This document shows, piece after piece, positions 1-37,201 of a DNA stretch of 40,114 bases (its first letter is position 1; each line of letters starts with the position of its first letter). Source of the stretch: Catajapyx aquilonaris (Eukaryota). The position numbers were made by a program, and so were the translations under genes. The stretch spans positions 1-40,114 of the forward strand of contig JYFJ02004355.1 in NCBI GenBank assembly GCA_000934665.2. The letters are read 5' to 3'. Under the pieces are notes generated by a model. It was not told where the DNA came from and did no database searches. It saw only the letters and a program-made list of their open reading frames with translations.

Positions 1-57
1 GAGGGGGGGAGGTAAAAAAGTGAAAAAATCTGTCCGCGCGGATTATGGACGGCCCCT
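1..57. mobile_element. Terminal inverted repeat end of a PIF/Harbinger-like MITE, truncated by the window edge
   Basis: The reverse complement reads AGGGGCCGTCCATAAT..., resembling Harbinger-type MITE termini, with a G-run internally. The partner TIR is not visible. Confidence 0.35.
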
Positions 58-221
58 TTCGTACCTATAAAGTTCAGCCTTAGTCCGGTAGGGTCGCCAC
101 ATAAATGCTCTGGGAAATGTCTCGTGGCGGTCTCAGGTGAGCACCCGGTGCATAATCCCTCGGCAGGGGGTGGGTGGGGAGTGACCTAACCTGAGTCTTC
201 TACAGCCATGCGTGAGGTTGT

Positions 222-450
222 CACATCGCTACACATCTCCGTCGCTACTTCCTCCACATCATCGGGAGGTAGTCACGTGATTGGCTGTGTTCGCTACCTC
301 CCTACCATCTGGCGGTAGTAGTCACATGATGGGTGAATTTGCAACTTCCATACCTACTAGCGGTAGTAGTCACGTGAGTCGGTCCCTTGCCCCACCATCT
401 ACCGGTGGGTATTATTACACGCTTTATTATTATTGTTGTTGTTGTTGTTG

Positions 451-538
<88 letters not shown>

Positions 539-1122
539 ACGCTTTATATTATCTTCACTCGGTTGTCTGTGAGCGGATTTGTGTGTGTGTGTTCACCCCT
601 CTGTTCGCCATTGCCCCACCATCTATCGGTAGGTATTAACGTTAGGGGTGATTTCGCGCCTTCCCACACCATCTAGCGGTTGGTATTCACATTAGGGGTG
701 ACTTTCCTACATCAACGCCAGATGGCGGCAGTAGTCACCTGAGTTTCGCACATCGCTGCACATCTCCGTCGCTACTTCCACTACATCATAGTGAGGTAGT
801 CACGTGATTGGCTGTGTTCGCAACCTCCATGCCATCTAGCAGCAGTAGTCACGTGTGTGGGTGGATTTGCAACTTCCACAATTAACGTTAGGGGTCACTT
901 CGCAACTTCAACGTCATTTGGCGGTAGTAGTCACTCTAGTTTATGAGGTCGCTTCGTCTTCCACCGCATCGTTTGGGTGTCATCCGCCACTTCCACACCA
1001 TTATCTGGAGGCAGTCACGTGAATGGGTGTGTTCGCTACCTCCCTGGCGGTAGTTGTAGTCACATGATGGGTGAATTTGCAACTTCCATACCTACTAGCG
1101 GTAGTAGTCACGTGAGTCGGTC
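222..1122. repeat. Degenerate ~45-50 bp satellite with higher-order duplicated blocks
   Basis: Recurrent unit ...ACTTCCA..CCATCT(A/G)GCGGTAGTAGTCACGTGA.... Block 222-350 recurs at 749-880 and block ~290-384 recurs at ~1027-1122. Confidence 0.8.
424..537. repeat. (TTA)n/(TTG)n trinucleotide microsatellite
   Basis: Directly visible. It generates the poly-Y/I/L ORFs in the track. Confidence 0.97.
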
Positions 1123-1308
1123 TGTTAGCAATCTCCACGCCAGTCACCGGAGTTACATACTGGCTCTCAGTATCCAGTTCGCTTCCTCCAAACTACAGGG
1201 CGGGAGTAAATACTCCAGACTGTTTTTTTAGTGACAAAGTGAAAAGATTACAAATCACAGTCTGCTGGCACCATTCCTTCCACTTTATCACTAAAAACCA
1301 GTTAAAAT

Positions 1309-1811
1309 AAAAATATATAAAAAACCTTTTTAAGAACACGCTTTATATTTCCAAGTGCACTAAAAAGTAGAAAATAATTTCTTCCTCAATCTTCAGCTTT
1401 CTCTTTTACCTTGAACTGAACAGAAGATTAATTACTTTCTTTCCATGGAATTCAGCTACTGCAGTATTGTCTTGCTTTACTTATATTCTTATACGGCCTA
1501 CATGACGAAAAATAAAGCATGGGCACTAAATGACACATTATCTACTTCCATGGCATGAAATATAACCATGTACAGTATTAAAATTTTAGTGCCACGCTTT
1601 ATTTTTCGTCATGTAGGCCGTATAAGAATATACTGTAAGTAAAGCAAGACAATACTGCAGCAGCTGAATTCCATGGAAAGAAAGTAATGAATCTTCTGTT
1701 CAGTTCAAGGTAAAAGAGAAAGCTGAAGATTGAGGAAGAAATTATTTTCTACTTTTTAGTGCACTTGGAAATATAAAGCGTGTTCTTAAAAAGGGGTTTT
1801 ATATATTTTTT
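1309..1811. mobile_element. Foldback/MITE-like long palindrome (~220 bp arms, ~55 bp spacer)
   Basis: 1309-1530 is the near-perfect reverse complement of 1585-1811 (AAGAACACGCTTTATATTTCCAAGTGCACTAAAAAG... vs ...CTTTTTAGTGCACTTGGAAATATAAAGCGTGTTCTT). Confidence 0.85.
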
Positions 1812-1954
1812 TATGATAGTCAAGTAACCTGCGACCCCCCTCCCTCCCCGAGTGTTAGTAGATGTCGAAAAAAAAACCTTTGTGATGAAATATCAAATAA
1901 AATTTATTTTGCTAATTGTTTAAATTTTAGTTATTTTTAAATTTATAATAATAA

Positions 1955-2032
1955 CTGCGGCCTATCACGGCCCCCCTGGACCTGCTCCATGGCCCCCTTG
2001 GGGGGTGGCGACCCCCAGGTTGGGAACCCCTG
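1955..2032. mobile_element. One end of a hAT-Charlie-type MITE
   Basis: Ends in GGTTGGGAACCCCTG (reverse complement CAGGGGTTCCCAACC, a Charlie-type TIR), followed by CGCTAGAC, a Charlie-like target site. Confidence 0.65.
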
Positions 2033-3264
2033 CGCTAGACTAATCCACCCGGGGGAGTTCACAAAATGACCAAGCAACGGCATTGCACTTGCACTTTGCA
2101 CATCCCCTCCTACTTACCCTTGGAACAATTAAATAATATAAATATTATATGGTTCCAAATATGGTGGTATTCCCATCCCCCTAAGAGGGCTTCGGCCCGA
2201 GCACGGGGTAGCTGAAAAAAAAAGAAAAAAAACTGCGACAATTTACGCGTCGAGGGCCATATTACACAATGCACAATTCAATCTCGAACAAAATGTAACT
2301 CTCGTCGTTCTTCATTTTAGGTCTTCATCTGTATACTGCATTTTCAGCCTGCTGCCATGTGCTAAAAAGAATCGCACGGTACAATGCAGTGGCGTAAGGG
2401 ATCATAGTGATTCTAATAATAATAATAATTTGGCCTCTGCAGGCCTGTAACGCAGATGTCAGTTACGTCATGCAAGGCAATTACTTATTGTAATACTGGA
2501 CGCTATTTTTGCACTATCTGTCAAAAACGTTTTGGTCAGACGTTTCCTGGCGCGATATAACCATCAGCATTAGCCCAGAGTGAAGTTTATGGGGAGAAAA
2601 AATACCATAGTGCTGATGGGTGCATAGAGGCAAGATGGCCTACGTGGAAAAACGTTTTTTTTTTAAATGACACGACTGTAAAATTAATTATGAAAGGGAC
2701 GGTAGAATCAAATCGAATTCAAAAATTTGGAGTCATTGTTTCCGTTTGAAAAATATATTAGTATAGAAGACAATGATAATAATATTGTCACTTTGCTTAA
2801 GTCATACATGATTGTACAGTACAGTACAGTACGTTTAATAATACTTCCACTATACCGATTAACCTATTTATCTTGCCAATAAGTGCAGTGTACGTATACA
2901 GTATATGTTACATTTAGGATGGCACGGTGGTGTATAGGCCACTGGTTAGTATAGTGTCACAGACTTCCCACCTAAAATACGGTATGCCATAATTTTCTCT
3001 ATAAGTTTATAATGTACGAGTACATATTTTAAATATACCGTATACGTATTTTGCATATACGCTATTTTTTTATTACACCTCAGTTGAGCATAGTTCATAG
3101 GACGAGGTAGTTACCCCACCAGAATATACCGTACATAAAGAGCGATTACAATATACGAGTACGTAATACCACAATATTTTAATCTATAGACACAAAACCA
3201 ATAAAAAGAGTGCATCAGGTTCCGTATTTTGTAATGTAGGTATTTCTGCACATTGGTCAGCGGA

Positions 3265-4356
3265 TAGTCCGGGACCTAAGCGCAAAATACAGACCGAACT
3301 TTGTACTTTGTGATAAGAAGGTGCCACCTGGTATCAACATTTCAAAAAGAACTGTCCCGTCGAGCGGGTAGCCCACACGTCGGGATGAACGGAACGGGTT
3401 CCATTCATCCTGAAGTGTGGGCTACCCTCTCGACGGGACAGTTCTTTTTGAAATGTTGATACACATGTTCCCTAGACCTATATGAGTCATTTCAGAGTTG
3501 GCGGCACCTGATCGGCCCCTTAGGTCACGAGTAATTATTCGGTGTTGCCAACTCTAGCTATTAAAGCTAACCTAAGCGTTTTTAACTTTGCCTTTTGTGA
3601 TAAGAAGGTACCACTTGGCACATAACTTCCCTAGGCCAATAGGAGCCATTTGAGAGATGGCGGCATCTGATCGGCCCCTTAGGTCAGGAGTTATGAGGCG
3701 TTGTCAAGAATGCCAACCCATGAGGCGCAAAACATGGACATGTCCTAAAAGTCGGATAAAACCGCATGAGAATGGCAGAAAATGACACAGATCCACTCTG
3801 CCGATGTATTACAAGGTACTGAGGTGACACCTGTCCATAATGGACCCTGCTGATTATAGTGAAACCCTGTCAATTTATTAAGAAATTCAATGGAAACTGA
3901 GGTATATGCAGAGGGCATGATTTTTTTTTTCATTTTGACATAGGGGACCGATCAGGTGCCGCCAACTCTCACATGAATCCTAAAGGCCTAGAAAACGTAT
4001 GTATTACCAAGTGCAAAGTTAAAACGCTTAGGTCCCGGACCAGGTTGGCAACACCGCGTAACTTGTGACCTAAGTGGCCGATCAGATGCCTCCAACTCTG
4101 AAATGGCTCATATATACCTAAGTAACATGCGTGCCAAGTAGCACCTTATCACAAAATGCAAAGTTAAAAACTGTCAAAAACGCTTAGGTTAGGTTAGCTC
4201 GAGTTGGCAACACCGTATTACTCGTGACCTAAGGAGCCGATCAGGTGCCGCCAACTCTGAAATGGCTCCTATAGGCCCAGGGAACATGTGTGCCAAGTGG
4301 CACCTTCTTATATCTTATCACAAAGTGCAAAGTTAAAACACTCAGGGCCCGGACTA
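3265..4356. mobile_element. Foldback element whose inverted arms are built from ~150 bp tandem sub-repeats
   Basis: Unit ...GTGATAAGAAGGTGCCAC...GAGTTGGCGGCACCTGATCGGCCCCTTAGGTCACGAG... occurs twice forward (3300-3700) and ~2.5 times inverted (3940-4356). Termini TAGTCCGGGACCT / AGGGCCCGGACTA. Confidence 0.8.
3334..3459. mobile_element. 126-bp near-perfect hairpin MITE with TA target duplication, nested in the foldback element
   Basis: TCAACATTTCAAAAAGAACTGTCCCGTCGAG...CTCGACGGGACAGTTCTTTTTGAAATGTTGA, flanked by TA/TA. The other sub-repeat copies lack it. Confidence 0.9.
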
Positions 4357-4421
4357 AGACGATCCCAGGCAAACATTCGCCAACTACAGTAGCTTCATTA
4401 CATTTAGATATATGGGATATA

Positions 4422-5910
4422 CACGGTGAAGGGAAACTCGCGCCCAATTGCCAGGTAGACTGAATGGCTGATAGTACTCGCAAAACTAATATAGGGATGT
4501 GCAATTAGTTTTTGGCTCCTTTGCGTAGTTAATGCGTCTATGGTGCCCTTAACCTGTTGAGTACTGGGTTTTCTTTTCAAGTGCAATACCCACGCCCCCC
4601 CCCCCCTTATTTCGGAAATGCGAATAGGAGTTAGACTACTTGAAATACCTGTTACTTGAAGTAAATTACTTGAAGTAACTTACTTGAAATAACAATTACT
4701 TGAAACAACTGTTACTTGAAACAACTGTTACTTGAAACAACTGTTACTTGAAACAACTGTTACTTGAAATAACAGTTACTTGAAACAACAGTTACTTGAA
4801 ATAACAATTACTTGAAATGCATGCGAACAAGGGCACGCGCAATGCGCAACTCTCAGGACAAAGGTCCGTCGTCGGACCAGTGGAAATAACAGCTACTTTG
4901 CAATAACAGTTGAAATAGCTGCAACTCAGTCGCAGTTACAGTTATTAAGCTATTTTCGACTCAGTAGCAGCTAATGCGATTCCGCTATGACGTTATTCTA
5001 CTATTTTGGTCGTGATGTTGGTACACTACAGCGTGCCCCTACCCCTGCCACAGTTAGTCTCTCCCATTACTTCTCACTTTTTTCAATATTTTCAGTGCTC
5101 GAATATAGCAGAATATTTATAGCTGCTCCTGAGTTGCAATTATTTTCAGTAACTGTAATTTAAATAACCGTCATTGCAAAGTAGATGTTATTTCTACTAC
5201 TCCCGACGAGGGGAGAAGATCCGCGCTGATAGGGGCCCATCTCTGATTGGCCGGATAGCTTCCAAGATCCTCTCAACCATGGCTAAGGTCTGGTCTGGTC
5301 ACTCGCTCTTACCGCCTGACGCCAGAGATTTGTCTCTCAGGCACCAGGGGGCAGCAGGATCCATCTTACCTCGCTGATTCAAGCCACTCAAGCAGTGCGT
5401 GATAGTTGAACTACCAACCACGAGATGGAATGGCAAGAGCAGCTTAAAAGTCATTGGCGCCTTTTTTATGCGAAGAAATGAGCGCGCAAGTAGCAAACCA
5501 TCATATGATGGCCGTAGGCCCTGGCCGGGCACGTCATGCTCGGCCATCATATGACGGTCGTCGCCCTCAACATGTTAAAGTGTAGAGGGCCGGATGGTAC
5601 AATACGAGGTAAAAATGACGAAGTCCACGGGTGTCGTACCAGGATTCTTGCTTTGACGGGATTTGATCGCCTTTTGCACATGGGCGATGTGTTACGGGAC
5701 CAAGGCAAGGGACCGAAGCAGACCGGAGGCCCTCGAACTGACTTTTTGCTTCTTAGAATCAGGCGGAACGGATGTGACGTCACGAAACTTTGTCGGTGCC
5801 GTACGTATTAACTACGCAACGGAGCCCAAAACTAATTGCACATCCCTATATTAGTTTTACGAGTGATAGCAGTCTACCTGGCGATTTGGCGCAAGTTTCC
5901 TTTCACCCTG
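4422..5910. mobile_element. Non-autonomous Tc1/mariner-type element with ~115 bp TIRs and internal cargo
   Basis: TA|CACGGTGAAGGGAAACT...GCGTAGTTAAT (4422-4537) is inverted at 5803-5910 (...AGTTTCCTTTCACCCTG|TA). Confidence 0.8.
4626..5202. mobile_element. MITE-like insert with a 16-bp tandem array (CTGTTACTTGAAACAA)n, 4637-4817, and related inverted termini
   Basis: About 11 tandem units. 4879-4930 (GGAAATAACAGCTACTTTGCAAT...GCAACTCAG) is inverted at 5129-5199. Confidence 0.6.
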
Positions 5911-8763
5911 TATAATAAAAATAAAGCTATAAACACAGTACGTTATACATGAGCTAATTGCAGTGGGATAGAGAATTATATGCCAGACTTATAAAATATG
6001 GCTGGATAATACGGTCTTCCTACCCGTTGAAAGCTGGAATGAGCTACTCTCACTGAATGACTCCTGTGGGATTGCGAATGAAATTCTCTGCTTTTGCAGC
6101 AACAATGAGAACAGCAGTTTTACTCCTTCTCTACCTCTCCTCCTCTACCTCTCCTTCTCCCCCTTCTCCTCTCTCCCCTTCCTCGTCCGAGATGAAGTTG
6201 AAAGAGTTCAGTCCCATGGGAAATGTGACTTCAAAATGGATCATAAGTTTATGTCCTTCAATCTCGGCCTTAGCTTCTTGCCTTATTTTCTTACTGGTTA
6301 GGGGATAGTAGGAGACCTCAAAGGCCCATATACAGTATATGGTAGCAATTCAGTGAAATGATGGACATGAGTGCACGGCTATAGGACTTCTTAAACGCTC
6401 ACCTCGACACTTTTGTCATTGATGCGGTACACTATAAGCACACATGTTATGAACATGCCTCAGCTGTGCTGCCGCTAACAAGATTATACGCATTTGCAAG
6501 CGGTGCTCTTGAGTAATGAATCTCGTCCAATCTACTGTACTTTCACTGATTAATTATCGATCTCTGTAAGTCCGTGCTCCGGGAAACTACCGTACATCGA
6601 ATTTGTGAGAGGCCGGCTTAAAATGGAGAGTGCCACAAAAATAGGACAAAAGAATATGCAGCGAACGCAGGATGTCATATACACGGCATGTAATTTTACC
6701 TAATGCTCTTGTTATTAACTGGGTGATAAAGTACAAGTCAATTTGCCCCTGATCAGCACATTTAGGACCACTCACTTCTTGATGTTATGGGTCAGTTGGA
6801 CTAAAAATTTGTCAATTATTTGCATTTAGCTTTTTTTGTGATCCTTCAATCCAATTAGGTGAATAGACGCAATAACCAACCACAAATGATTATCATTTAC
6901 CTAGTTATTTTAATGAGCGTATTGGCACCGAGAATAAATTATATGAAAAAACCCTGAGTACTTTTGGCTCCATAATGAGGTGGGAACACATTTCATCATT
7001 ACGGGACTAAAGCTGGAATGGCGTCAGTAAATCGAGTTTCGTGCAACTTCCTTGAAACTGCCTTAGTAGGTTTTACCACTGCACAGTAGGAGAGGGATTA
7101 GCAAATAACCCGAAGATATTGCGGTTAGGGCCTTACTGCACTCGAGCAGCTTATACATTTTTAAAACCAGGATAAGCCTATAGCGCATTATTTGATCCCA
7201 AAGAAGTGCAGATGAAGGAGAAACGCCCAACATGAGTTTGAACATGTGACATTTTGCAAGGTGACTCATATATTGACCTAGTTTGTGTGGACTCGCGTCC
7301 TCCAAGACATCTTCCCAGGGAAATGCATGAGTATCGCAATTGTCTCATCAATAATGCAACACCATTGCCATGACCACGGAAAAATACAACCGAATTTTGG
7401 TTCGAGATCAGTATCGAAAATCAGAGACCATCCTCGTGACATGCGAGAATTGAACACGGTAATCTTATACCATTTACACACAAAAAAAGGTAGGTGGGAA
7501 TATTTTGCTCGTCGTTGGGAAACGAAAATGTGTTGAGGCGGCTGACACATGGTACGGAAGACAATATTCATTATTTTCCAATGCGGCGTTAGGGACTACT
7601 GTCGCCTAGGTGACGAATGCGCAATATGAGCACCCCCACCCTCCCTTCCCACGTTTCCATTTTGTCCCCCCTGTCTCCCCGTCCTTCCCCACCCAACACA
7701 CACACAGACCTTACCACAGCACCCTTGGCACCTAACGTATTTTGCCAATATTCCATGCTGCAGGAGTTGGATAATGCGATTTGAACAGTGTCGCCTTTAG
7801 CGTCATATAATGAACCTCATCCATATAGAAGCTGGCAAACAATAATAAAATCTTCCACCTGAATTCTGGATATTACACGCCTATTCGAAGCAAACTGAGG
7901 CGACAGATCAGGGTTGTGTATGACATGGTTGTTCTGTTATACATTTTGGCTCATTTTGTTAATCACATTAATAATGTCGCAGGAGCCAGAATAGTCTAAG
8001 GGGAGACATGTTCTCCTATACATGTAAGTAAGTGATTAAGGGGCCTTTTTAAAAAGAGTTACTTCTGAACGAATAGGTGCTCGACAGTGATCGATATGAA
8101 GGTAGCATGTACTGTTGGCAGGAAGGGTGCCAAGTTTCTGTAGCATCTTCGTGACGTCATGTGACCAGCATACAGCTTTGCGCAGCAAGGTGGGCGACAG
8201 GTTCACCTGAGTGTCTATATCACTATACAGTAGGTGGTCGGAAATGATCGTGTCACACTAAAAGAGTCATAACAACAATTGCGAAGTCAAATGTACTGTA
8301 ATTTTGCACATCCACAAGCCTTTGCGCTTTGAAACAGCACCTCAAAGACAGTGCAGAAATTCAAGGCAAACACTTAGAAGTATTGGGCGGAAGAATAGTA
8401 GGCCTGTCGTTAGTATTTCCCGTGGATTTGCCAAGCGGAACGACTATCAGTGACGTAATTAGATTTCAATGGCGTCTGAAGTGCAAGCATCTGCAAAATT
8501 GCGACCTGCAAGGTCTTTCTTGAATGGGTGCTTTTGATTTCTCGTAGGCGGTGTTTCCGCCTGACTCATGCTGAGATTAACTTGCACAAAGAGAAGACAG
8601 TTTAGACTAAAGAAAACGAACCATTAAATATCTAGGATCTATCCATGAATAACGTTATTCACGACACGTGTTTCAACTTGTTCAAGAGACTCGTCTATGC
8701 TGTATAGAGAGGTGTGATCTTGAGAGCACAGAAGGCGTAAAATAATGAGATTATGGCGTCAAA

Positions 8764-9123
8764 CAGGATGGTGACAAAGGTGCGCACTTCCGCTCGTACC
8801 TAGAGCAAGTTATTCTAAGGTGTAATTACCTAGTTGACTTGGACGATTTCGTATCCATTACGGAGATAATGGCATGCTAAGGTTATACACGTAAGCAAAA
8901 GCAATGGGGGTCATCCTGTGTATCAGGTGACACATGTCGCAAGGGAGGTTGTGGGTTGGAATACCATCAGCAGGAAGACCCCTATTACGTACGTCTGTAA
9001 CCTTATCATGCCATTATCTCCGTAATGGATACGAAATCGCCAAAATCATCTAAGGTAATTTCGTCTTAAAATATCTTAAGAAACCGGATCCGACAGGAAG
9101 TGCGCACATTTGTCATCACCCTG
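8764..9123. mobile_element. Tc1/mariner-like MITE with ~150 bp TIRs
   Basis: CAGGATGGTGACAAAGGTGCGCACTTCC...CGATTTCGTATCCATTACGGAGATAATGGCATG is inverted as ...CATGCCATTATCTCCGTAATGGATACGAAATCG...GGAAGTGCGCACATTTGTCATCACCCTG. Confidence 0.8.
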
Positions 9124-9266
9124 CATATTGGCGATTCGGTGGGTTTTCCTAGCATCCTAGGCAAATGATTATTGGACTAATTTGTTTCTGAATATATGGT
9201 ACGTAATTTGAGAACCATTTTGAGTCCGATTCTCCAGCCTATAACGTCCTCTACTGATATGTCATA

Positions 9267-10119
9267 CAGTAAAACTTATATTTAAGTCGAATATCCATGG
9301 AACCGGAAAAAAACATCGAGTTATAGAAGATTCGAGTTAAAGAAGTTTGGATTTTTTAAAGCACAGAACTCTATAAGGAAGCCTACCTTTATATCCAGCG
9401 ACTAAAGGTGTTCAAAACTTTAAAATACCTGTAACTATCACACTTACAATGTTCCTCATCGTTTTGTTGTAAAAAAAATCTCCGTTATGGACATTTGCCT
9501 ACTCTTAGATTCAAGGATTCAATTGTCCCAATCGAGTAAAACACTTCTTTCGATACTTCTGGTAGACGGAGATCAGGAAATTGAGCCTTTCTGTAAATGT
9601 GGCCTACTCTCTACCCTTCGGCTGGGAAATTCGAAAATTTTCGTACTCACCATCATGAACTTCGACTTAGGGAGGCTTTATAATTGATATTAGGGAGGTT
9701 GGCCCCTGCATTGTCCCTTCAACCTCCAAGGATATGGAAGGAAGGAAGGAACCGGCTGTGGCCTATATTATATACGGAAGGGATCCCGGAATCATCCTAG
9801 GAAGACCGTGGAAAACCACAGAAAGCCACGGTCAGGATCGTCGGCCCCGGGATTCGAACCCAGGACCTCCCGATTAGCAGTCGGACGCCTTATCCACCAT
9901 GCCAACCTTCTTTGGTACTTAGGGAGACTGAAAATGCATTGATATCCCATCGTAAGGCCCTGCCTGCACTTCGAGTTATGGAGAACTTCGAGTTATAGAA
10001 ATTCGAGTTAGGGAAGTTTATTTCCTATCATTTTACATTGTGACCAACCAAGCTCATCATTTTCTTCGACTTATAGAGAACTTCGACTTAGGGAAGTTCG
10101 ACTTATAGAAGTTTTACTG
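9267..10119. mobile_element. pogo/Tigger-like MITE with TA TSD
   Basis: TA|CAGTAAAACTT...AAGTCGAA and TTCGACTTATAGAAGTTTTACTG|TA, with subterminal TTCGA(G/C)TTA repeats. Confidence 0.85.
9675..9916 (-). mobile_element. tRNA-derived SINE (family A, copy 1) nested in the pogo-like MITE
   Basis: Minus-strand A box TGGCATGGTGG and B box GGTTCGAATCC. 10-bp TSD ACTTAGGGAG at 9665-9674 and 9917-9926. Highly similar to 14671-14905. Confidence 0.9.
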
Positions 10120-13100
10120 TATTTATTTAAAAAAATTGCTGAGTAAGCCGCGAGCCGCATGCGGGCACAAAATTTACTATAGGCGAAAATATCCCGTATT
10201 ATACTTTCAGCCTCAGTCGAAGCGCAGATTAAAATATTAAACAGAAAGTAAATTTAAAAACTAGGGCATTTCAACAAATTAACCACACTTACTTGAACAG
10301 TGGGTCAGATATAGACTTGGTTATGCCTTGAGCACAATCGGTAGCTTTTGCCCTAAGTAACCTATTCAAGCCGAATCTGTTGGCCTGTCGGTTAAACATG
10401 TTGTCAACTGGATGACAGATCATAAAACTCCGCAGAAAATATACTAGGTCGACCTGGTTTTGCGACTACGTAAATAATAAAACAGGCCATAACACTCTTT
10501 TCCTGTCCAAACAGCCCTATTGCACCTTTAAAGTAATGCCTTCCAAAACTATGAAGTGTAAACCCATAATCATTATCAACAAGAATATCCCGAAATACAA
10601 ACATATAGAAACTAACCAGCACAATCGAGCATGAAATGTCAGCAAGCTGACTTATTAAGCCCCCACGTTAGAGCAATAGGCACTCTTTTGAATCCTAACT
10701 GGAGGAGGATAATATAGACACTGTGGGGTCAAAGTTGACAATCGTGCTGGAAATTCCAGCACAAACGTAGTGCTCACAGCAGGGATCGCACATGTAGAAT
10801 ATTTGAATCTGTAGTTTTAAAAAAAATCACTCTTTGACATCACCTTTTGCTTCCCCCTACACAAAGGCAAGAGCCTGTGCTGATGCTGCACATGGCGGCA
10901 CATCTTCACTGTAGTTATGTTTTTTTGAAAGAAAAAGTGTTGTGGGTCCCCAGCAGCGACAGCCAGCCTGCAGTCATAGCAGGAGTGCCGAGGAAGCTCG
11001 GGCCAAGAGTAGCTTCCTGCTGTCCCGCCCTTATCGATCTAGTAGAAAGAGATATATTTACCACGAAGGGGGAGGGAAAGAGGAGGCTCTCGCCTTATTG
11101 CAGAAACCTTTCATTCGCAGAGATGCTGGATGCAGAGGGAGGAAAAAGAAGCCACAGATGTCCTCAAACTTGGCTGAAAAGAATATATGCTTTTTTTTGT
11201 CCAAAAGTGTCACCTGGCGGCAGATAAGTTGACCGAAAGGAAGATGGTAGCTTGTAAAATTGCGTTGTGCGTATTGGAACACTACTTTATTTGTTATTTG
11301 CAGTTGTGCGAATATACATGCTCAATAGCTTGGAAACCGCGGCTTTAAACCATTCTGTAGAAAGATATTTACCTTCCGTCATAAAGTGCAACGAGGTTTA
11401 AGTTAGCATGCCAAGGCGCGCTCGTAGGTTTTATATCGTCATGAAATGCTCATATCCACATAGATGCATTCCATTTTAGTACCTGCTAGTAGGATGGTAC
11501 GTATTTATGATGTGGATGCGTTCCAAGCACATTTAGTCAATAATGCACAGCTTAAATATTTCAGTTCGTGCTTGTCCGCGTCACCTACAAACTGACGAGA
11601 GAGGCTGCAAGTAACCAGGCGGGAATAACAAGACGGATTTATCCACGCTTCTGCTCGTTGCGTTATGGATGCTGCACTGCATTGCAGCTATACTTGCCTT
11701 TGACAACATGCTTGGCAAACACGGTGCACAGTTTAACTATAATTGCTAATAAACCTGTTGATACCCACGTATACGGTTGAATTCCAGAGATTGTAAATCA
11801 CGTGAGGTCAATCGGCTCGTTTGTTCATAATGAGGGTTTGAAAGTGATATATAACCTATCGTATAGACAGACTTGAGTACGTTACAAAGTGGGCGTTAAA
11901 AAAGTGGAAAAACTTACAAGTGAGATGTTCTTTCTGTGCGAGAACGATTTTTTTAAATGAGCACAGTAGGGACTCTAAGCCTGCTTTATACTAGGAAAGT
12001 ATGTTTCATTTTTGAAATGAAAGTGTGCAGTTCTTTCAAAAGTTGGTAGCAGTCACTTAACGGAAATACGGATCGCTTAAGAAGGAAGTTAAGAAACGTA
12101 CTTTTCGACTATCGATTTTTTACTACCCCTTGAAAAAAAAAAAATCTTCTGCCCACTTCTCCATGATGTAGAAAAAGAGGAGAACTATATAGAAATTAAT
12201 CTGATTGAATGCATATTATACAGCCATGATTGGGGCGTATAGCAAGGATATCAAGTAACTTTACAAATTACAATAGCTGCATTATCTACCTCTATTTAGG
12301 TCAGAGCATCCTTCTTCATACTGTAAAGTACTTCTATTGGCCATTTTTAAAAAAGAGGTCTTATAAGCACACTTTGTCTGTTATTGAAGTCAAAAACACT
12401 GATATAATGCGGGAACTAAAAGTAAATTTGAACTGTTGTTTTTATGCCTTGGGATATTAAATAGAAAGACCTGAAGTGCAAAACAATATATTAGGGTCAC
12501 ATTTTGGGCAAAATTGAGTTATATATAGATATCCCCGCATCAGCAAGTCTTGGAATGGTACGTTCTTGTGGTAGAGTGAATTTTTTAATAAGCTTAGAAT
12601 ATACGGTATTGTAGATTGAGTGGGTGAGAATTAAAAGGGCACAAGATCACCTCTTTTTTCAAAATGAAGGTGCTGGTTGGTAAATATAGAAAAGATGAAA
12701 AAGATGAAGAGGCAGCAGTGAATAGGGTGATTATGTTTTAAATCCCATTGAAGCTAATAGAAACCTCCAGCACTTCAAGAAAGGGAGCCTATTCAGATAG
12801 AAAAGAGTTCACATCCGGCTTGGTTATTGTTCTAAAAGGGGCGGAGAGAGAATGAAGCACCAGGTGATCAGGTCTGAAGGTAAAAAGAATCTTGACTGGA
12901 AAGTTTAGAAATAGACTGCTTATATCCGTTTAGCGGCGGTTTTTTAAACCCTTCTGTGAAGTTGAGAGAAGTGGATTTGGGCCCTTTTCATTTTCACAGA
13001 CTCAATTACAGTCCTCTTCAGAGAAATTTTAGAAAAAATAATAAATCTCGTAAGAGAAACAGAATCTTTAAATGTAATAATAATTCATACCCCGTTATCA

Positions 13101-13180
13101 GCCATTTTTCGGCTCTTTAGGGGGGAAGTTTGTTTTGCCTGGAACTCTTTGCATGCTTTTCATTTTACTGTGCTCTTTGG

Positions 13181-13296
13181 GATAGGATAGGGACGGAAGG
13201 AAGCGGCTGTGGCCTATTGATTACGGAAACAACTCCGGAATTTTCCTGGAAGGACCGTGGGAAACCACAGAAAACCACGTTCAGAGTTGCCGGCCA
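13181..13296 (-). mobile_element. Diverged partial copy of SINE family A (body only)
   Basis: GGAAGGAAGCGGCTGTGGCCTA...CCGTGGGAAACCACAGAAAACCACG matches the bodies of the two full copies. Confidence 0.75.
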
Positions 13297-13536
13297 TTAT
13301 GCACTGCAAATACATTATTAATTTATTATTAAAATGAGTATTCAAAATACGCAAACTTTTCTTCAAAAAAGACGCTCACAATATACGGTAATTTTTTTGT
13401 GCCTCATGTTTATCTCTTTCTTGCTCCCGTGTGGCTATGGAGCTGAGATGGAAGGACTGCGTGACTACAAGTAATGGCGGAGGACGTTTGTGATATTATT
13501 ACGATAACCATTCACAGTAGTAACACAGGCCTAGAG

Positions 13537-13568
13537 CATAGATATTAAAGGTAACCTTTAATATCTTG
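13537..13568. mobile_element. 32-bp TIR-only hAT-like relic with 8-bp TSD
   Basis: CATAGATATTAAAGG-TAA-CCTTTAATATCTTG flanked by GCCTAGAG / GTCTAGAG. Confidence 0.55.
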
Positions 13569-14670
13569 GTCTAGAGAATAAAAGAGAGGCGTCCCCTGGC
13601 GTCCCTGTGTAAACACTATGCTTTTAGCTAGTCGTCCTAATCTTACTGGCCTTCTACTCGATGAGACATGATGTTCACATAATTGCACATAAGTTCAGGA
13701 GAAATATTGAAAACTAACAAATAGGAGGGCGACCTGGTGTAGAGGCGCTGCATCTTTTGGTAAGTCGTGAATAAAACAAAACACGTAGTTCTGCACGTCA
13801 TTTTGGCCAAATCCACTTTGCAATGCCATAGATAGAGTAGCCCAAGTCCCGCTCAGCGACGCAAAACAAAAATGGTGCTAAGAATATAGAAGGAAGGACA
13901 AGGAGGTCTGGGCCTATATAAAAAGTGATTTTTAGAAAGGTTTTGGAGTCCCTCTTGAAAAGTGTGCAAAGTGCTTGGACATGGGCTAGTTCTGATGCGG
14001 AGCGGCGAGCAGAATCCCGCAGTATTAAAAGTGCTCAATATTGACGCTTTTTCCGAAGGAAATATTGTTCTTTCAGAAAATGCACTCTCTGCATTCGATG
14101 TCAGGCTCGACTGCTCATCTCGGAATTATTTATGGCACTTGAATACACGTGCGTGCTATAGAGAATGTCACAGAAAATACTCGTACATCATTTAAGCGAC
14201 TAGATCGGAAGCTTCTATACCTGTGACGTAATCATGCCACTTCACGGGTTTCCAATAAGGCACGCTGCATCACTTACATGCCATCACAGAATATGTTAAT
14301 GCATGCGTAGTTTCTAGATGCAAGGGGCAAATTCGCATGTACTGTCATTCCCACTCTGGAGACGGGGAAAGTGCTCATTTTTTCCGTCTCCAGTTACGGT
14401 TTGGTGACGGGTCATTATTATGTGGACATTCCCGGCCTTTTCTTATTTTCATTGTGGGTTCTTATCTCGGCGATGAAATAAATTTAACGGTCATAATAAT
14501 TATAACACTGTGATATGAGGCCCCGTACCAATGCCGTAGTGCCAAAAATGTTATTGTATAATGTCCCGTCCGAGGTCCCGTCTCTAAGCCGAGACCCTGG
14601 CCTAGAAAATTCGAGTACTTGTCTCTTCTCCCATATCGAAACACGGATTAGACTGCAGGCATGACGTTAC

Positions 14671-14905
14671 TTTATACAGTAATTGATATTGGGGAGGTTG
14701 GCCCAGCATTGCCTTTAAACCTCCAAGGATAGGGAAGGAAGGAAGCGGCTGTGGCCTATTATACGGAATCGACCCCAGAATTATCCTAGAAAGACCGTGG
14801 AAAACCACAGACAACCACGGTCAGGATCGTCGGCCCCGGGATTCGAACCCAGGACCTCCCGATTAGCAGTCGGACGCCTTATCCACCATGCCACCCTGCT
14901 TCGGT
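14671..14905 (-). mobile_element. tRNA-derived SINE (family A, copy 2)
   Basis: Same A and B boxes as copy 1. Perfect 13-bp TSD GGCATGACGTTAC at 14658-14670 and 14906-14918. Confidence 0.92.
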
Positions 14906-15349
14906 GGCATGACGTTACCAGAGCTAATTTATTATCTCAAACAAAAGTTCAATTTCCAGTTAGGAGCCGTAATTGTAGTAACTTTAAAAGAACACCGTCC
15001 TGCTGCGTTTATGGAACAAACAAAACAAACAACCCATCACAACATTTCCGGCCTATAAAAGGAATAGTCACTGATGAACCAAGTGACGCAAGGTATAACT
15101 TACAAACATCCAGTGGACTTAGAAAAACCCCAACCTAGACTTGAAATTAGCCTATCATCAAAGACGTAAATATACTGGGTAAGGCACATTATTTTTAAGC
15201 AAAATGAAAGGACATTCTCAGAAATTACTGATCACCACCCTTAAATAACTTACTCCAATTACACCTACCCAAACACATAACCGTAGCCTATGCCTTGTCC
15301 ATGGTCCTCTACGCAAAGACGAAGCTTTAGCATAGTATAGGGCACAGGC

Positions 15350-15720
15350 ACACCCTTACACTTTTAAAAGAGATTCACATGGTCCAGTCATGTTTTTCTA
15401 GGTGTCTACTCCGTCCCTTACCAATATTACCTTCAAGGGGGTAACCACTTCGGTGCTCCGGTGCATACACATGCGAGTGGTACTCCCATGTACTCCTTAG
15501 GTACACTACCTTACTCTTTGATACTCCTTGGTACCCCTTGAATTTGGTACTCCAGTGTACACTTTTCAGTAGAGTGGTTACCCCCTTGCTTACCTTATTA
15601 CATCAGGGTAAACCTTCTTCACAATTATTTCCTCCTCCTTAATCCTCTTAGAAAGACGGAACCATCCTGCACTCCTTATCCTCGCTGACACCACACCTCT
15701 GCAAGCTCTCATTCCTATAA
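15350..15720 (-). mobile_element. Degraded 3' fragment of an RTE-clade LINE ORF, interrupted by a MITE
   Basis: Minus-strand translation ...AGWFRLSKRIKEEEIIVKKVY... resembles the RTE ORF2 C-terminal LRWFGHVxRM...VKKVY motif, followed by a degenerate GxRxRGRP-like region. Confidence 0.45.
15434..15588. mobile_element. 155-bp MITE with 16-bp TIRs and 8-bp TSD (hAT-like)
   Basis: CAAGGGGGTAACCACT / AGTGGTTACCCCCTTG, flanked by ATTACCTT / CTTACCTT. Internal GTACTCC repeats. Confidence 0.85.
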
Positions 15721-15726
15721 GCATTA

Positions 15727-16606
15727 TCTCTATCTCTATAAATAAGGAGAGTTTGTTTGTTTGTCCCTTATAGAAATTCAGGGGAAAGCCCCTACACCGC
15801 CTTAAATTAGCATATCGGGGGTTACATTTTCCCAAGGAATCTAACGCCGCATGTTTCAGCTTCCGAAAATGTACCTAACTCCCACAACACACATATTCCC
15901 GAATCTTCTCTCTTCTCGGGCCTTAACAATTAACTTACATAAAAATCAATTAACAACATATCAATTCACATTCCCATGGAAATGCCCTTATGCAACTTCA
16001 ATACCTAGCAAATTAAACCATCGCCGGTAAATTCAACGCATGCACCAATTACGCTAATAATTGGCCACCTCACGTGAGTTCGTATCGTATGGTCATTCCG
16101 GGATTTCGTGGGATTAGAAAGTAGACTTCCAGACAAAAATAAATACAATAAAATAATACAGTATTTACTAATATTACTCCGTGTTGAAAATATTTCTTCC
16201 ACCATGCATCTGTACGTCTGTACGTACATTTCTAGAGTTCTTCAAAGCAAACATATGGAACGAGATGGAGGTGTGAAGTGGGGTTGGGGGGTCAAGGGGT
16301 CAAAAATGCAGGGGGGAAAAACACACGGCTGTGCAGTCTTTTCTTGGGCCAACTCCATCCGCAATCCTCTTTTTACACATCCAATCAGAATATCTGTGTC
16401 GACTACACTATAAGACAAGCAGGTAATCTATCACAGAGAGTGACAAACTTTGGCTTATTGCAACTTATAAGGCCTATTTTAAGACATATCGAGTTTCGAG
16501 TGTACGGAAGGGAAATTTTTACAAACAAACACACTTCCTAAAATAGTGTATATGTACCCCTTACCAGCACCCCAACATACCCGGGCAACGCCGGGTAACC
16601 TGCTAG
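15727..16606 (+). mobile_element. Non-autonomous Helitron
   Basis: 5' A|TCTCTATCTCTATAAAT...(TTTG)n. 3' hairpin CCCGGGCAACGCCGGG followed by CTAG|T. Confidence 0.8.
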
Positions 16607-30638: not shown

Positions 30639-32398
30639 ATGGAGGGTAAATTGGATGTTAAGAAGGTAAGTTTTATCAGCTCCATAAGTCTGCAGTGAAA
30701 TTTGGTTATCGCGGGCACTCATTTGGTAATGTCAAAATATTATTTTTCTAGGATGACTCACATATCGATGTAATTCTGGAGCCATTGATAGATGACTTTC
30801 CAGCACGAGTGTTTCTTGGAAGATTTCTGTCCTTCACCAATGCAAGTAGCATAATCACCTATGAGTTGATCGACAAAATAAGGGTGAGTGAATCGTATGT
30901 ATACAGGCCTGCAAAAATGTCAGGCATTAAAGTGTATGGAGCCCTGCAATGCAAAGTGATCTGAGTCACACTAGATTGATTTAATTAATGGATGTTAGAG
31001 TAAGTTTGAAGATTGTATTACCCTTTATGTGTTACGTACTTACGTGGCGTCCAGGACTTAATTACACAATGCCTTACTCAATTTCATCCAAAATGTGACT
31101 CTAATCTTTATGAAATTCAAGTCTTAATATTATAGATTATCAGACATTGGCAGTACAATTAATTAACACATCAATAGTGGTGGTAGTTTATTGGTATAAA
31201 TTTGTTGTTCCTATTTTTGTATCAATTCAGACTGAATCAGCTGACTTGGTTGAAAACTTGGAATCACGAATCCATGATAAGGAAGAAATACCATTGGAGG
31301 ACATTGTACGGTTGATCAAGAAAGCCATGAACGTGGCTGAAGAAGTCTGCAAAGCAGTTGACACCTCCCTGGATCTATTCAGGAATGAAACCCATAACAA
31401 ATGCACATCCGACTTCTTGCGTTTTGTTCAAGTTTGTCATTTTATTCATCCTTAAAAACATGCGTGAAGGTTTAAATACTGATGGACACATTTCTCAAGC
31501 ACAAATTATTATACCCTTATTCCAGCGCATTTTGGCTGATAAGCGGCACAGCAATGCCACACTCTGCCAGGAACACCATTTCGTGAAAGACATGCTTGAG
31601 CAGATCCACAAACTGTTGTTCCTCCACTGCAAGAGTGTGCAAAGGCTGTATGAAGATGAGGAGGGAAACCGCATGGAAAAATGCAGCGAATTGTCCCTTG
31701 AAATAAGGGAATTTGTTACCTCAAATCACGAAATCCTTCTGAAGCAGCGTGAGGACTACAACGGGTACATCAAGGGGAAAACTCAAATTGTTCTCCAGAC
31801 TATCATGGACAAATTCAATGAAAACATCGACGCAAACCTGACAAGGGTGAGTAAAGTGATGATTCTCTCCTGATATCCTTCTGGATTAGGCACATAATAA
31901 TTATGTTAGCTCATAAATACTGTGAGACACTATAGGTATGTTGAAGTATGTACTTTAATACAGGTGATTGAATCTCGTGAAACCATGAGTCATGTAGGCA
32001 AGCCTTCTCAGATGATGTTTGAGGATGACCTGATGAGATGCCAGAATGAAGTTGTAGAGACCATTTCAACATCTCTGGTAGATGCTGACGGACTCTGCAA
32101 TAAGCTACTTATGGAGGCCAAGGCAGAGGTCGAAGCAGAACAGAAACATCGCAGGGGGACCATAATGACTGAGTTCAAGTCTCAGGAGAAGTGGAGCCTG
32201 TACTTCTGCACCATGACTCTAAGGGGGCTGGCAATAGCATTAGCTGGACACCTGAACATGCTGGAGGACCTAGTTGACGTCATTCATGTAAGTAGAATTT
32301 ATTACAGCGTCCAATTAATTTTGTCTCCAAATCTGTATTATTCTTATTCCTGTTACCATTATTTGCAGGATGTCATACGGAAGTACAACACCACCTAG
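30639..32398 (+). CDS. Uncharacterised alpha-helical/coiled-coil protein, 344 aa
   Basis: Exons 30639-30665, 30752-30883, 31231-31431, 31526-31846, 31964-32287, 32369-32398. All five introns are GT-AG and phase 0, giving an uninterrupted 1035-nt ORF (MEGKLDVKKDDSHIDVILEPL...DVIRKYNTT). Confidence 0.85.
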
Positions 32399-36294: not shown

Positions 36295-37201
36295 TTACCA
36301 TGTACCATATCGTACCTGAATACTGCCTTGCATTGTTTTGGAACAGACGTTGGGGTTTCTTTTCCTAACGTCACTCAATGTTCCCGTTTGGACACCTTTT
36401 GGGATGCAAAGAGGAGGGCTCGTTTGAGTGCGCCTATTCACTGTCTCCTTTATGTCGCAGTTACACTGGACAGATGCATTTTTAGTCATAATTGCGACTT
36501 GCACATGGACACTTTTGCATTTCTTTTCAAGATGTGCTGTGTTCTACAAGGAGCAAAAAGAAGAAACCAATGTCAGAACGTGCTATTGAGTCTGTAAATA
36601 AACATCACCTGCACCTGTGTGGAGGTCGACTCATCATGACTGGATATTCTTGTACCATAACTCTCAGATGTGTTCTGAAATAAGTAGGTGCACTTGGAAA
36701 TTTGTATGTGCGAAATGTACTTTTGAGTCTGTAAATAAACATCACCTGTACCTGTGTGGAGGTCGACTCATCATGAGTGGATATTCTTGTACCATAACTC
36801 TCAGATGTGTTCTGAAATAAGTAGGTGCACTTGGAAATTTGTATGTGCGAAATATGTACAGTAGGTACATCTGCTAATGCCTCTACCTGCAGTTTCGGAA
36901 CGGCGTTGGGCTTCAGTCTCCGTGTCTGCTGGTCTGGTCTAAAGGGAAATATAGACTGCCTTTCAAAGTGATCTAGACACACCCGATGATGTGCCTTGGG
37001 TGCGTACGTTGGCGGCAAATTCACCGATGCTCTCCATTGTTGCATCAAGTCTTCATTTTCACGGGGGAATGAGAAGAAATGGACACCCTGACCACTTGAC
37101 TGACGACGCCCACAAACTACGCAAATGCGTCCTACCGGAGGATTCCCGATAGGGGCAGCTCCTTGCTCAGCCATGTATGTGTCCGGTCGTCGTTTCGCCA
37201 T
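36295..37201 (-). CDS. THAP-domain protein with a low-complexity tail of TQT-like motifs (~231 aa)
   Basis: THAP signature CVVC...FFSFP...W...RVCLDHF...LKPNAVP. Phase-0 exons 37201-36887, 36811-36746, 36674-36609, 36543-36295 with GT-AG boundaries. Confidence 0.8.
36586..36853. repeat. 137-bp tandem duplication comprising one 66-nt exon plus intron
   Basis: 36586-36716 is nearly identical to 36723-36853 (two substitutions inside the exon). Confidence 0.95.

Follow-up and report, generated by a model that had tools for sequence, protein, structure and literature searches.

Does a disabled copy of TOP6BL, a gene reported to be required for meiotic breaks in all species that possess it (PMC12642689), mean that an animal lineage is giving up meiotic recombination? 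This question is raised by a locus of Catajapyx aquilonaris on contig JYFJ02004355.1 (here C2382; assembly GCA_000934665.2, 285.6 Mb in 20,583 pieces), which was analyzed over its entire length of 40,114 nucleotides (nt) and is called the window below. An original prediction made from the window alone had described a TOP6BL-like gene with six disabling lesions between intact neighbours, and had suggested decay of the meiotic recombination machinery and possibly an asexual lineage. The best explanation found here, which we would place a little below an even chance, is that a full-length TOP6BL has recently become a unitary pseudogene while the lineage goes on recombining, either as Caenorhabditis does or with a short homologue elsewhere that escaped detection.

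Splice-site and codon models were trained on nine genes of the same genome (31 donors, 35 acceptors and 9.6 kb of coding sequence). In leave-one-gene-out tests, 37 of 38 control exons were assigned their true frame by the codon model. The 29 control introns measured from 57 nt upward, and the lowest of the 35 control acceptors scored −0.3. Exon borders at the locus were inferred from the sequence alone, and the candidate segments were picked post hoc, after inspection. Read evidence consisted of contigs from runs X1, X2 and X3, which represent one sample, possibly the source of the assembly; contigs of run X5 covered only repeats within the window. The following putative coding exons were recognized.

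11373-11382, minus strand: putative first coding exon, an ATG plus 7 nt; donor of 3.6 bits, with a phase 1 end that fits the next exon.
11094-11173, minus strand: putative exon 2, open; acceptor of 4.6 bits, codon score 0.12, shuffle P=0.004; its donor is either GC (at 11094) or GT (at 11062).
10844-11038, minus strand: putative exon 3, 195 nt with one open frame, single copy; codon score 0.10, genomic null P=0.005, shuffle P=0.06.
10617-10698, minus strand: putative exon 4, 82 nt, all frames closed, no significant codon signal; the same in X1 and X2.
8063-8257, minus strand: putative exon 5, 195 nt, open, phase 0 to phase 0, single copy; codon score 0.05, P about 0.03.
7715-7831, minus strand: putative exon 6, 117 nt, all frames closed; splice sites of 6.5 and 3.8 bits; the same in X1-X3.
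7120-7315, minus strand: putative exon 7, one open frame, without a usable AG acceptor; shuffle P=0.035 (over 7316-7137).
6054-6289, minus strand: putative exon 8, with a purine-repeat expansion (6183-6123) and TAG at 6133-6131; the same in X1-X3.
2247-2361, minus strand: putative exon 9, all frames closed, TGA at 2327-2325 in phase; its phase fits the donor at 6054, and it is the last recognizable part of the gene.

Five of nine scored segments (11173-11062, 11038-10844, 8257-8063, 7316-7137 and 6293-6185) carried a codon signal with P<=0.035 by shuffling or against a genomic null, and in each of them the best-scoring frame was also the stop-free frame. The remaining four showed no codon signal; one of these, 2211-2118, was a dispersed repeat. 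On the minus strand of 10550-11450 six acceptors of at least 3.3 bits were present, compared with one on the plus strand and a maximum of five in 48 null windows. Reading phases chained from the ATG at 11382 through exon 6, and again from exon 8 to exon 9 over 3.7 kb of repeats; exon 3 also joined exon 5 in phase if exon 4 was skipped. The segments of exons 4 and 6 had strong splice sites on both sides, and those of exons 4, 6 and 9 (10698-10617, 7831-7715 and 2361-2247) were closed in all three frames. The splice-site cluster, the codon signal and the phase chain together gave the exon-intron structure, as inferred from the sequence, that is expected of an unprocessed pseudogene. The predicted unprocessed pseudogene, with a single copy, remained the best reading, the closed segments being putative exons.

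A real gene remnant on the minus strand is very probable from these features. We do not rate it higher because the choice of segments followed inspection and because the codon model partly tracks GC content. The same post hoc choice, the four of nine segments without signal and the ability of repeat-derived DNA to score as coding would suit a locus without any gene, at which open frames and splice-like sites had arisen by chance in single-copy intergenic DNA. Five segments of one strand with open-frame signal, the acceptor cluster and the phase chain make this quite improbable.

All six base features of the original prediction were located at the positions claimed, and they differed in their consequences. 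The TAA at 11033-11031, near the junction of exons 2 and 3, was present but does not force a lesion, since two introns keep the frame: a 55-nt GC-AG intron (11093-11039; donor context of 5.7 bits before the GC penalty) bypasses the stop, and an alternative 94-nt GT-AG intron (11061-10968) also preserves the frame past it. The second lesion, a G5 run at 10664-10660, was real, and the three frames of the 82-nt segment 10698-10617 contained 1, 2 and 2 stops between splice sites of 5.6 and 4.7 bits. The third, TAG at 7734-7732, was present as well, but in a frame that the open reading of 8257-8063 does not lead into; the frame that it does lead into is stopped, within 7831-7715, by TGA at 7819-7817 (stops in the three frames of this segment: 1, 1 and 2). 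The fourth, CCCTG at 7320-7316 in place of an acceptor, was also real, and no AG nearby reached the control range: the closest, at 7310 and 7343, scored −3.4 and −7.0, under all 35 control acceptors. The fifth, TAG at 6133-6131, was found inside a period-14 purine repeat (6123-6183). Codon signal flanked it in one shared frame (shuffle P<0.001 and, after the TAG, 0.024, the latter from 26 segments tested); this TAG could be a natural stop. The sixth, TGA at 2327-2325, was real and in phase with the donor at 6054, with a codon signal downstream of it (P=0.003, 26 segments tested).

The bases themselves were well supported. Contigs of X1, X2 and X3 were identical to 5900-8873 with 0 differences, which spans lesions 3-5, and contigs of X1 and X2 were identical to 10130-13100 with 0 differences, which spans lesions 1 and 2. 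Thus, the claim that the lesions are no consensus errors held for lesions 2-5, which recur in the read contigs and for which assembly error is unlikely. To explain the lesions by faulty assembly, or by heterozygosity with one allele assembled, one would have to rely on the X3 contig, which differed from 10130-13100 by 3 substitutions and 3 gap letters somewhere in the stretch (27 homopolymer runs of at least 5 lie in it, the G5 run among them), on the tendency of contigs to drop rare variants and on the single sample. Given the exact matches of three runs over one stretch and two over the other, we regard this as extremely improbable. As a separate observation, bins 10868-11695 showed a slight surplus of contig depth in all three DNA runs, which suggests a short second match or an allele; the surplus was placed by estimate at about 11250-11310, and the DNA search of the genome revealed no such copy.

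Are these lesions borne by a dead gene? A working, very divergent gene might use unusual sites (a GC donor, a minor intron and a non-AG acceptor), skip the closed segments and end at TAG 6133 with an acidic tail. Its five coding-like segments would be stop-free in frame save for this TAG; lesion 1 can be bypassed, exons 3 and 5 join in phase and an AT-start intron, described below, solves the junction of exons 7 and 8. However, entry to exon 7 would require an acceptor below all 35 controls, the codon signal persists past TAG 6133, and the best open paths at the locus scored 43-64 versus about 85-321 in well-modelled genes. The best open path with near-control sites omitted three of the five coding-like segments and passed through a short interspersed nuclear element (SINE); the path finder is crude, being exact for 12 of 15 internal control exons. 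We consider a working gene unlikely. Several points nevertheless count against a dead one: the codon model, besides following GC in part, is small (9.6 kb); the closed segments lack a whole-segment codon signal, and all three may never have been exons; and clean coding-like segments beside signal-less closed ones are also expected of a working gene with odd borders. If the gene is dead, its divergence since death would be about 4-6% substitution (interval 0.5-19%), because 2-3 stops occur in about 400 codons and 3.9% of substitutions create a stop.

The junction of exons 7 and 8 bears on the identity of the gene.

6290-7119, minus strand: candidate degenerate U12-type intron, 830 nt, with an AT start, joining exons 7 and 8 in frame.

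The start of this intron at 7119 reads ATATCTTCG, and there are four RTATCYT sites on the minus strand of the 40-kb window. A branch-like 9-mer, TCCCCTAAC, ends 7 nt upstream of the in-frame AG at 6289; it departs from the consensus at 2 positions, and none of the 29 control introns contained one as good. At this junction both exons are in phase 0 and no major donor of good quality fits; U12 small nuclear RNA was found in the genome. An AT-start minor intron is present in human and mouse TOP6BL according to PMC6717393, and minor introns are reported to make up <0.5% of all introns. By rough arithmetic, the chance of such a coincidence over eight introns is <1 in 100. An exact U12 5' site was present at none of the exon borders, and a rescue of lesions 3 and 4 by this route was not found. 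A second RTATCYT, at 11368 on the minus strand, lies 4 nt into the putative first intron; no fitting branch or partner was found for it.

The TOP6BL-like label of the original prediction was returned by no search, and its support, indirect in kind, comes from this minor-spliceosome-like intron. The locus also resembles metazoan TOPOVIBL/TOP6BL (mouse Top6bl, or Gm960; human C11orf80; PF15091, DUF4554) in being multi-exon and of fitting size, with the vertebrate AT-start minor intron having its possible counterpart in the candidate described here. It differs in its stops and frameshift and in the lack of a profile or sequence match, and the 3H helices that bind SPO11 were not located in it. By eye, its order of strand-like and helix-like segments resembles what we take to be that of mouse TOP6BL, and we give this little weight.

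A number of results speak against the identification. The 5' site of the candidate intron is imperfect by the consensus, and the branch lies 8-9 nt from the 3' end versus an optimum of 11-13. Pfam returned nothing for 8 open frames and 12 read-through frames of the locus. A genome search with PF15091 and PF09239 found none, with two PF15091 matches of E 1.6 elsewhere; the PF15091 searches were run on unspliced sequence, and their positive control gave no signal. No match was obtained by phmmer with one read-through frame of 8401-7001 against 1.84 billion proteins, by a word search with 40 residues of exon 8 (3 candidates, 0 matches) or by an Atlas search. A PDB sequence search also returned nothing. 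The SPO11 query there gave 4 matches without mouse SPO11, so the TOP6BL chain was probably outside the PDB set searched. In a fold search the best Z was 6.0, and neither TopoVIB nor Rec102 was among the matches listed; single-sequence models showed three strands followed by a helix for 6292-6053 (predicted local distance difference test, pLDDT, 62) and reached a pLDDT of 42 for 8257-8063. The pattern W-x3-V-x2-L-x2-W of the REC114-binding C-terminal helix (mouse W562, V566, L569 and W572; PMC9671922) occurred in none of the six frames of 1-16500, a search limited by the 3' end of the locus, which runs into repeats and the contig end. Mainly the W of the WKxY motif is left in TOPOVIBL (PMC9665070), and the W codon at 7317-7315 has no discriminating power for such a remnant. 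Finally, by-eye homology is unreliable here, because a by-eye match at 2211-2118 proved to be a repeat.

The blanks in these searches are weak evidence, because TOP6BL is one of the fastest-evolving meiotic genes (PMC12642689), because unspliced pieces were searched and because the databases hold no near relative: the best match of DMC1 was 81% (many animals) and that of a TFIP11 exon 45% (insect proteins). An exon-wise search missed even TP6A_N in SPO11 although that gene is present, which shows the weakness of such searches. The locus might alternatively be a decayed gene of another family, its TOP6BL likeness lying in the eye of the observer and its minor-intron-like sites being due to chance or shared. 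No tool named TOP6BL, the C-terminal pattern is missing and matching by eye failed once; on the other side, the databases lack any relative near enough for a fast-evolving gene to be named, TOP6BL evolves very fast and minor introns are rare. Another family is an unlikely alternative, and we regard the locus as probably TOP6BL.

DNA searches of the genome with 11450-10600 and 8400-5950 found the locus alone, and protein searches with three exons found the locus alone plus one match at E 2.6. Exon 9 had no match elsewhere in the genome among the best 40 candidates scored. No intact paralogue was found by these DNA and protein searches; in this fragmented assembly, old or short copies would escape them.

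In contrast to the predicted decay of the meiotic machinery, the partner genes were whole where they were examined. SPO11, on contig C884, has seven exons with EKD and DAD motifs and 0 internal stops from the first located exon, and its FY pair sits at what we take to be the catalytic position. DMC1 (341 amino acids), MND1 (204) and HOP2 (213) are complete and open with 0 internal stops. Open MutS-domain exons were found at five loci; we take two of these loci to be MSH4 and MSH5 by their motifs, and the parts of MSH4 and MSH5 examined have no stops as spliced. RAD51 exons are present in the genome as well. Profile searches for REC114 and MEI4 gave no match, with their controls silent too. Two duplicates were observed beside the whole genes. 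A decayed MND1 copy on contig C7931 (about 460-2900) is 87% identical over its first 1.4 kb and carries frameshifts and an insertion, while the whole copy lies on C1008; and on C884 the last exons of SPO11 are partly duplicated in tandem 3 kb downstream of the gene (about 51840-52330), at 86% identity and with gaps.

The idea that an asexual lineage is losing its meiotic recombination machinery at large could invoke these duplicates and the REC114 and MEI4 profiles without match. Six meiotic genes with 0 internal stops as far as they were spliced argue the other way, the decayed pieces being extras beside whole genes, and where animal spo11 and top6bl decay it is reported as joint (PMC9665070). 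General decay is very improbable, and the suggested asexual or parthenogenetic lineage gained no support, the recombination genes checked being whole. Very recent asexuality would likewise leave the meiotic genes whole.

The locus is interspersed with repeats, and the claim of repeat insertions inside its introns was borne out by the following elements.

9300-10130 (approximate ends): high-copy repeat insertion, with a summed contig depth of about 1e5.
About 9703-9917: SINE-like element nested in 9300-10130; a second lies at 14712-14905 (146 nt, 92% identity).
8764-9123: intronic inverted-repeat element with arms 8764-8796/9091-9123 and 8831-8901/8982-9052.
4418-5914: intronic element with terminal inverted repeats (arms 4418-4537 and 5803-5914).
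3250-4350 (approximate ends): intronic repeat-rich element with internal direct and inverted repeats.
2050-2232: dispersed repeat with a poly-T edge, adjoining the 3' side of exon 9, 92-96% identical to its nearest copies.

The segment 2211-2118 had been tried as a transducer exon and was rejected, because it lies inside this last repeat, where it mimics a strong exon, and had 148 other protein-level matches among 150 scored. An inverted repeat at 1309-1810, with 175-nt arms of 98% complementarity, is probably a young element resembling a miniature inverted-repeat transposable element. In the stretch 14865-15430 the assembly represents another haplotype or copy, as each of the three read sets departs from it by 10-12 letters and 4 gaps.

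Among the neighbours, which had been described as intact, open spliced paths were found for five (TFIP11, a BTB-zinc finger gene, two zinc-finger genes and a gene at 31-32 kb). The THAP gene was left unmodelled by the path finder and consists of a single open frame of 217 amino acids. Two tandem 137-nt copies of 98% identity (36586-36853) overlap the 3' part of the THAP frame and represent a recent duplication or an assembly artefact. The gene at 30917-32398 on the plus strand, of about 300 amino acids, has strong splice sites and a weak DNAAF5-like TPR match (E 0.001).

How might the lineage make meiotic breaks? A single-copy minus-strand gene of about nine coding exons, whose product was probably a full-length TOP6BL with a GHKL-like part and a transducer, would have stopped yielding its full protein, and the remnant would make none today. 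Breaks would still be formed by SPO11, whose gene is intact and whose activity is presumed. Either another cofactor would promote the SPO11 dimer without TOP6BL, as in C. elegans, or a short transducer-only homologue would be encoded elsewhere, beyond the reach of the searches; TOP6BL-independent meiosis is one of two possibilities that fit the present data. The narrower proposal that the lineage keeps SPO11, DMC1, HOP2, MND1, MSH4 and MSH5 and has recently lost the one TOP6BL it had, with the dead gene still readable, is tentative and rather doubtful.

Precedents exist for both routes. In Caenorhabditis, top6bl is reported absent in 50 of 54 species, with DSB-1/REC114 as its replacement (10.64898/2026.07.30.741518); SPO11 without TOP6BL would be common to both cases, and a substitute cofactor was not identified here. 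Loss of top6bl with SPO11 kept is described for nematodes and placozoans, and joint pseudogenization of spo11 and top6bl for the nematode D. dipsaci (both PMC9665070). The present locus would resemble D. dipsaci in a top6bl caught in mid-decay and differs from it in its intact SPO11. Mouse SPO11 is reported to cleave DNA alone in vitro, with dimerization needed (10.1101/2024.11.20.624454). A transducer-only TOPOVIBL is described for Drosophila, some other insects and chelicerates, and is reported to have arisen repeatedly (PMC9665070). It is alike in the arthropod loss of the GHKL-like part; unlike it, the 3' exons here are also stopped, and no short product is evident at the locus. A literature search of limited coverage listed no arthropod in which TOP6BL was described as lost or decaying.

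The locus is no ground for regarding the species as asexual. It points to the loss of one helper protein and not of sex, because SPO11 is whole, as are the further recombination genes that were checked. With another gene at the locus, or a short homologue elsewhere, it would be an ordinary pseudogene. If the loss of TOP6BL is true, it would add, beyond nematodes and placozoans, an independent instance of an animal that cuts its meiotic DNA without TOP6BL, and one recent enough for the compensating change in SPO11 or REC114 to be traced through close relatives. A recent loss with DMC1, HOP2 and MND1 intact would then be a natural test of what substitutes for TOP6BL.

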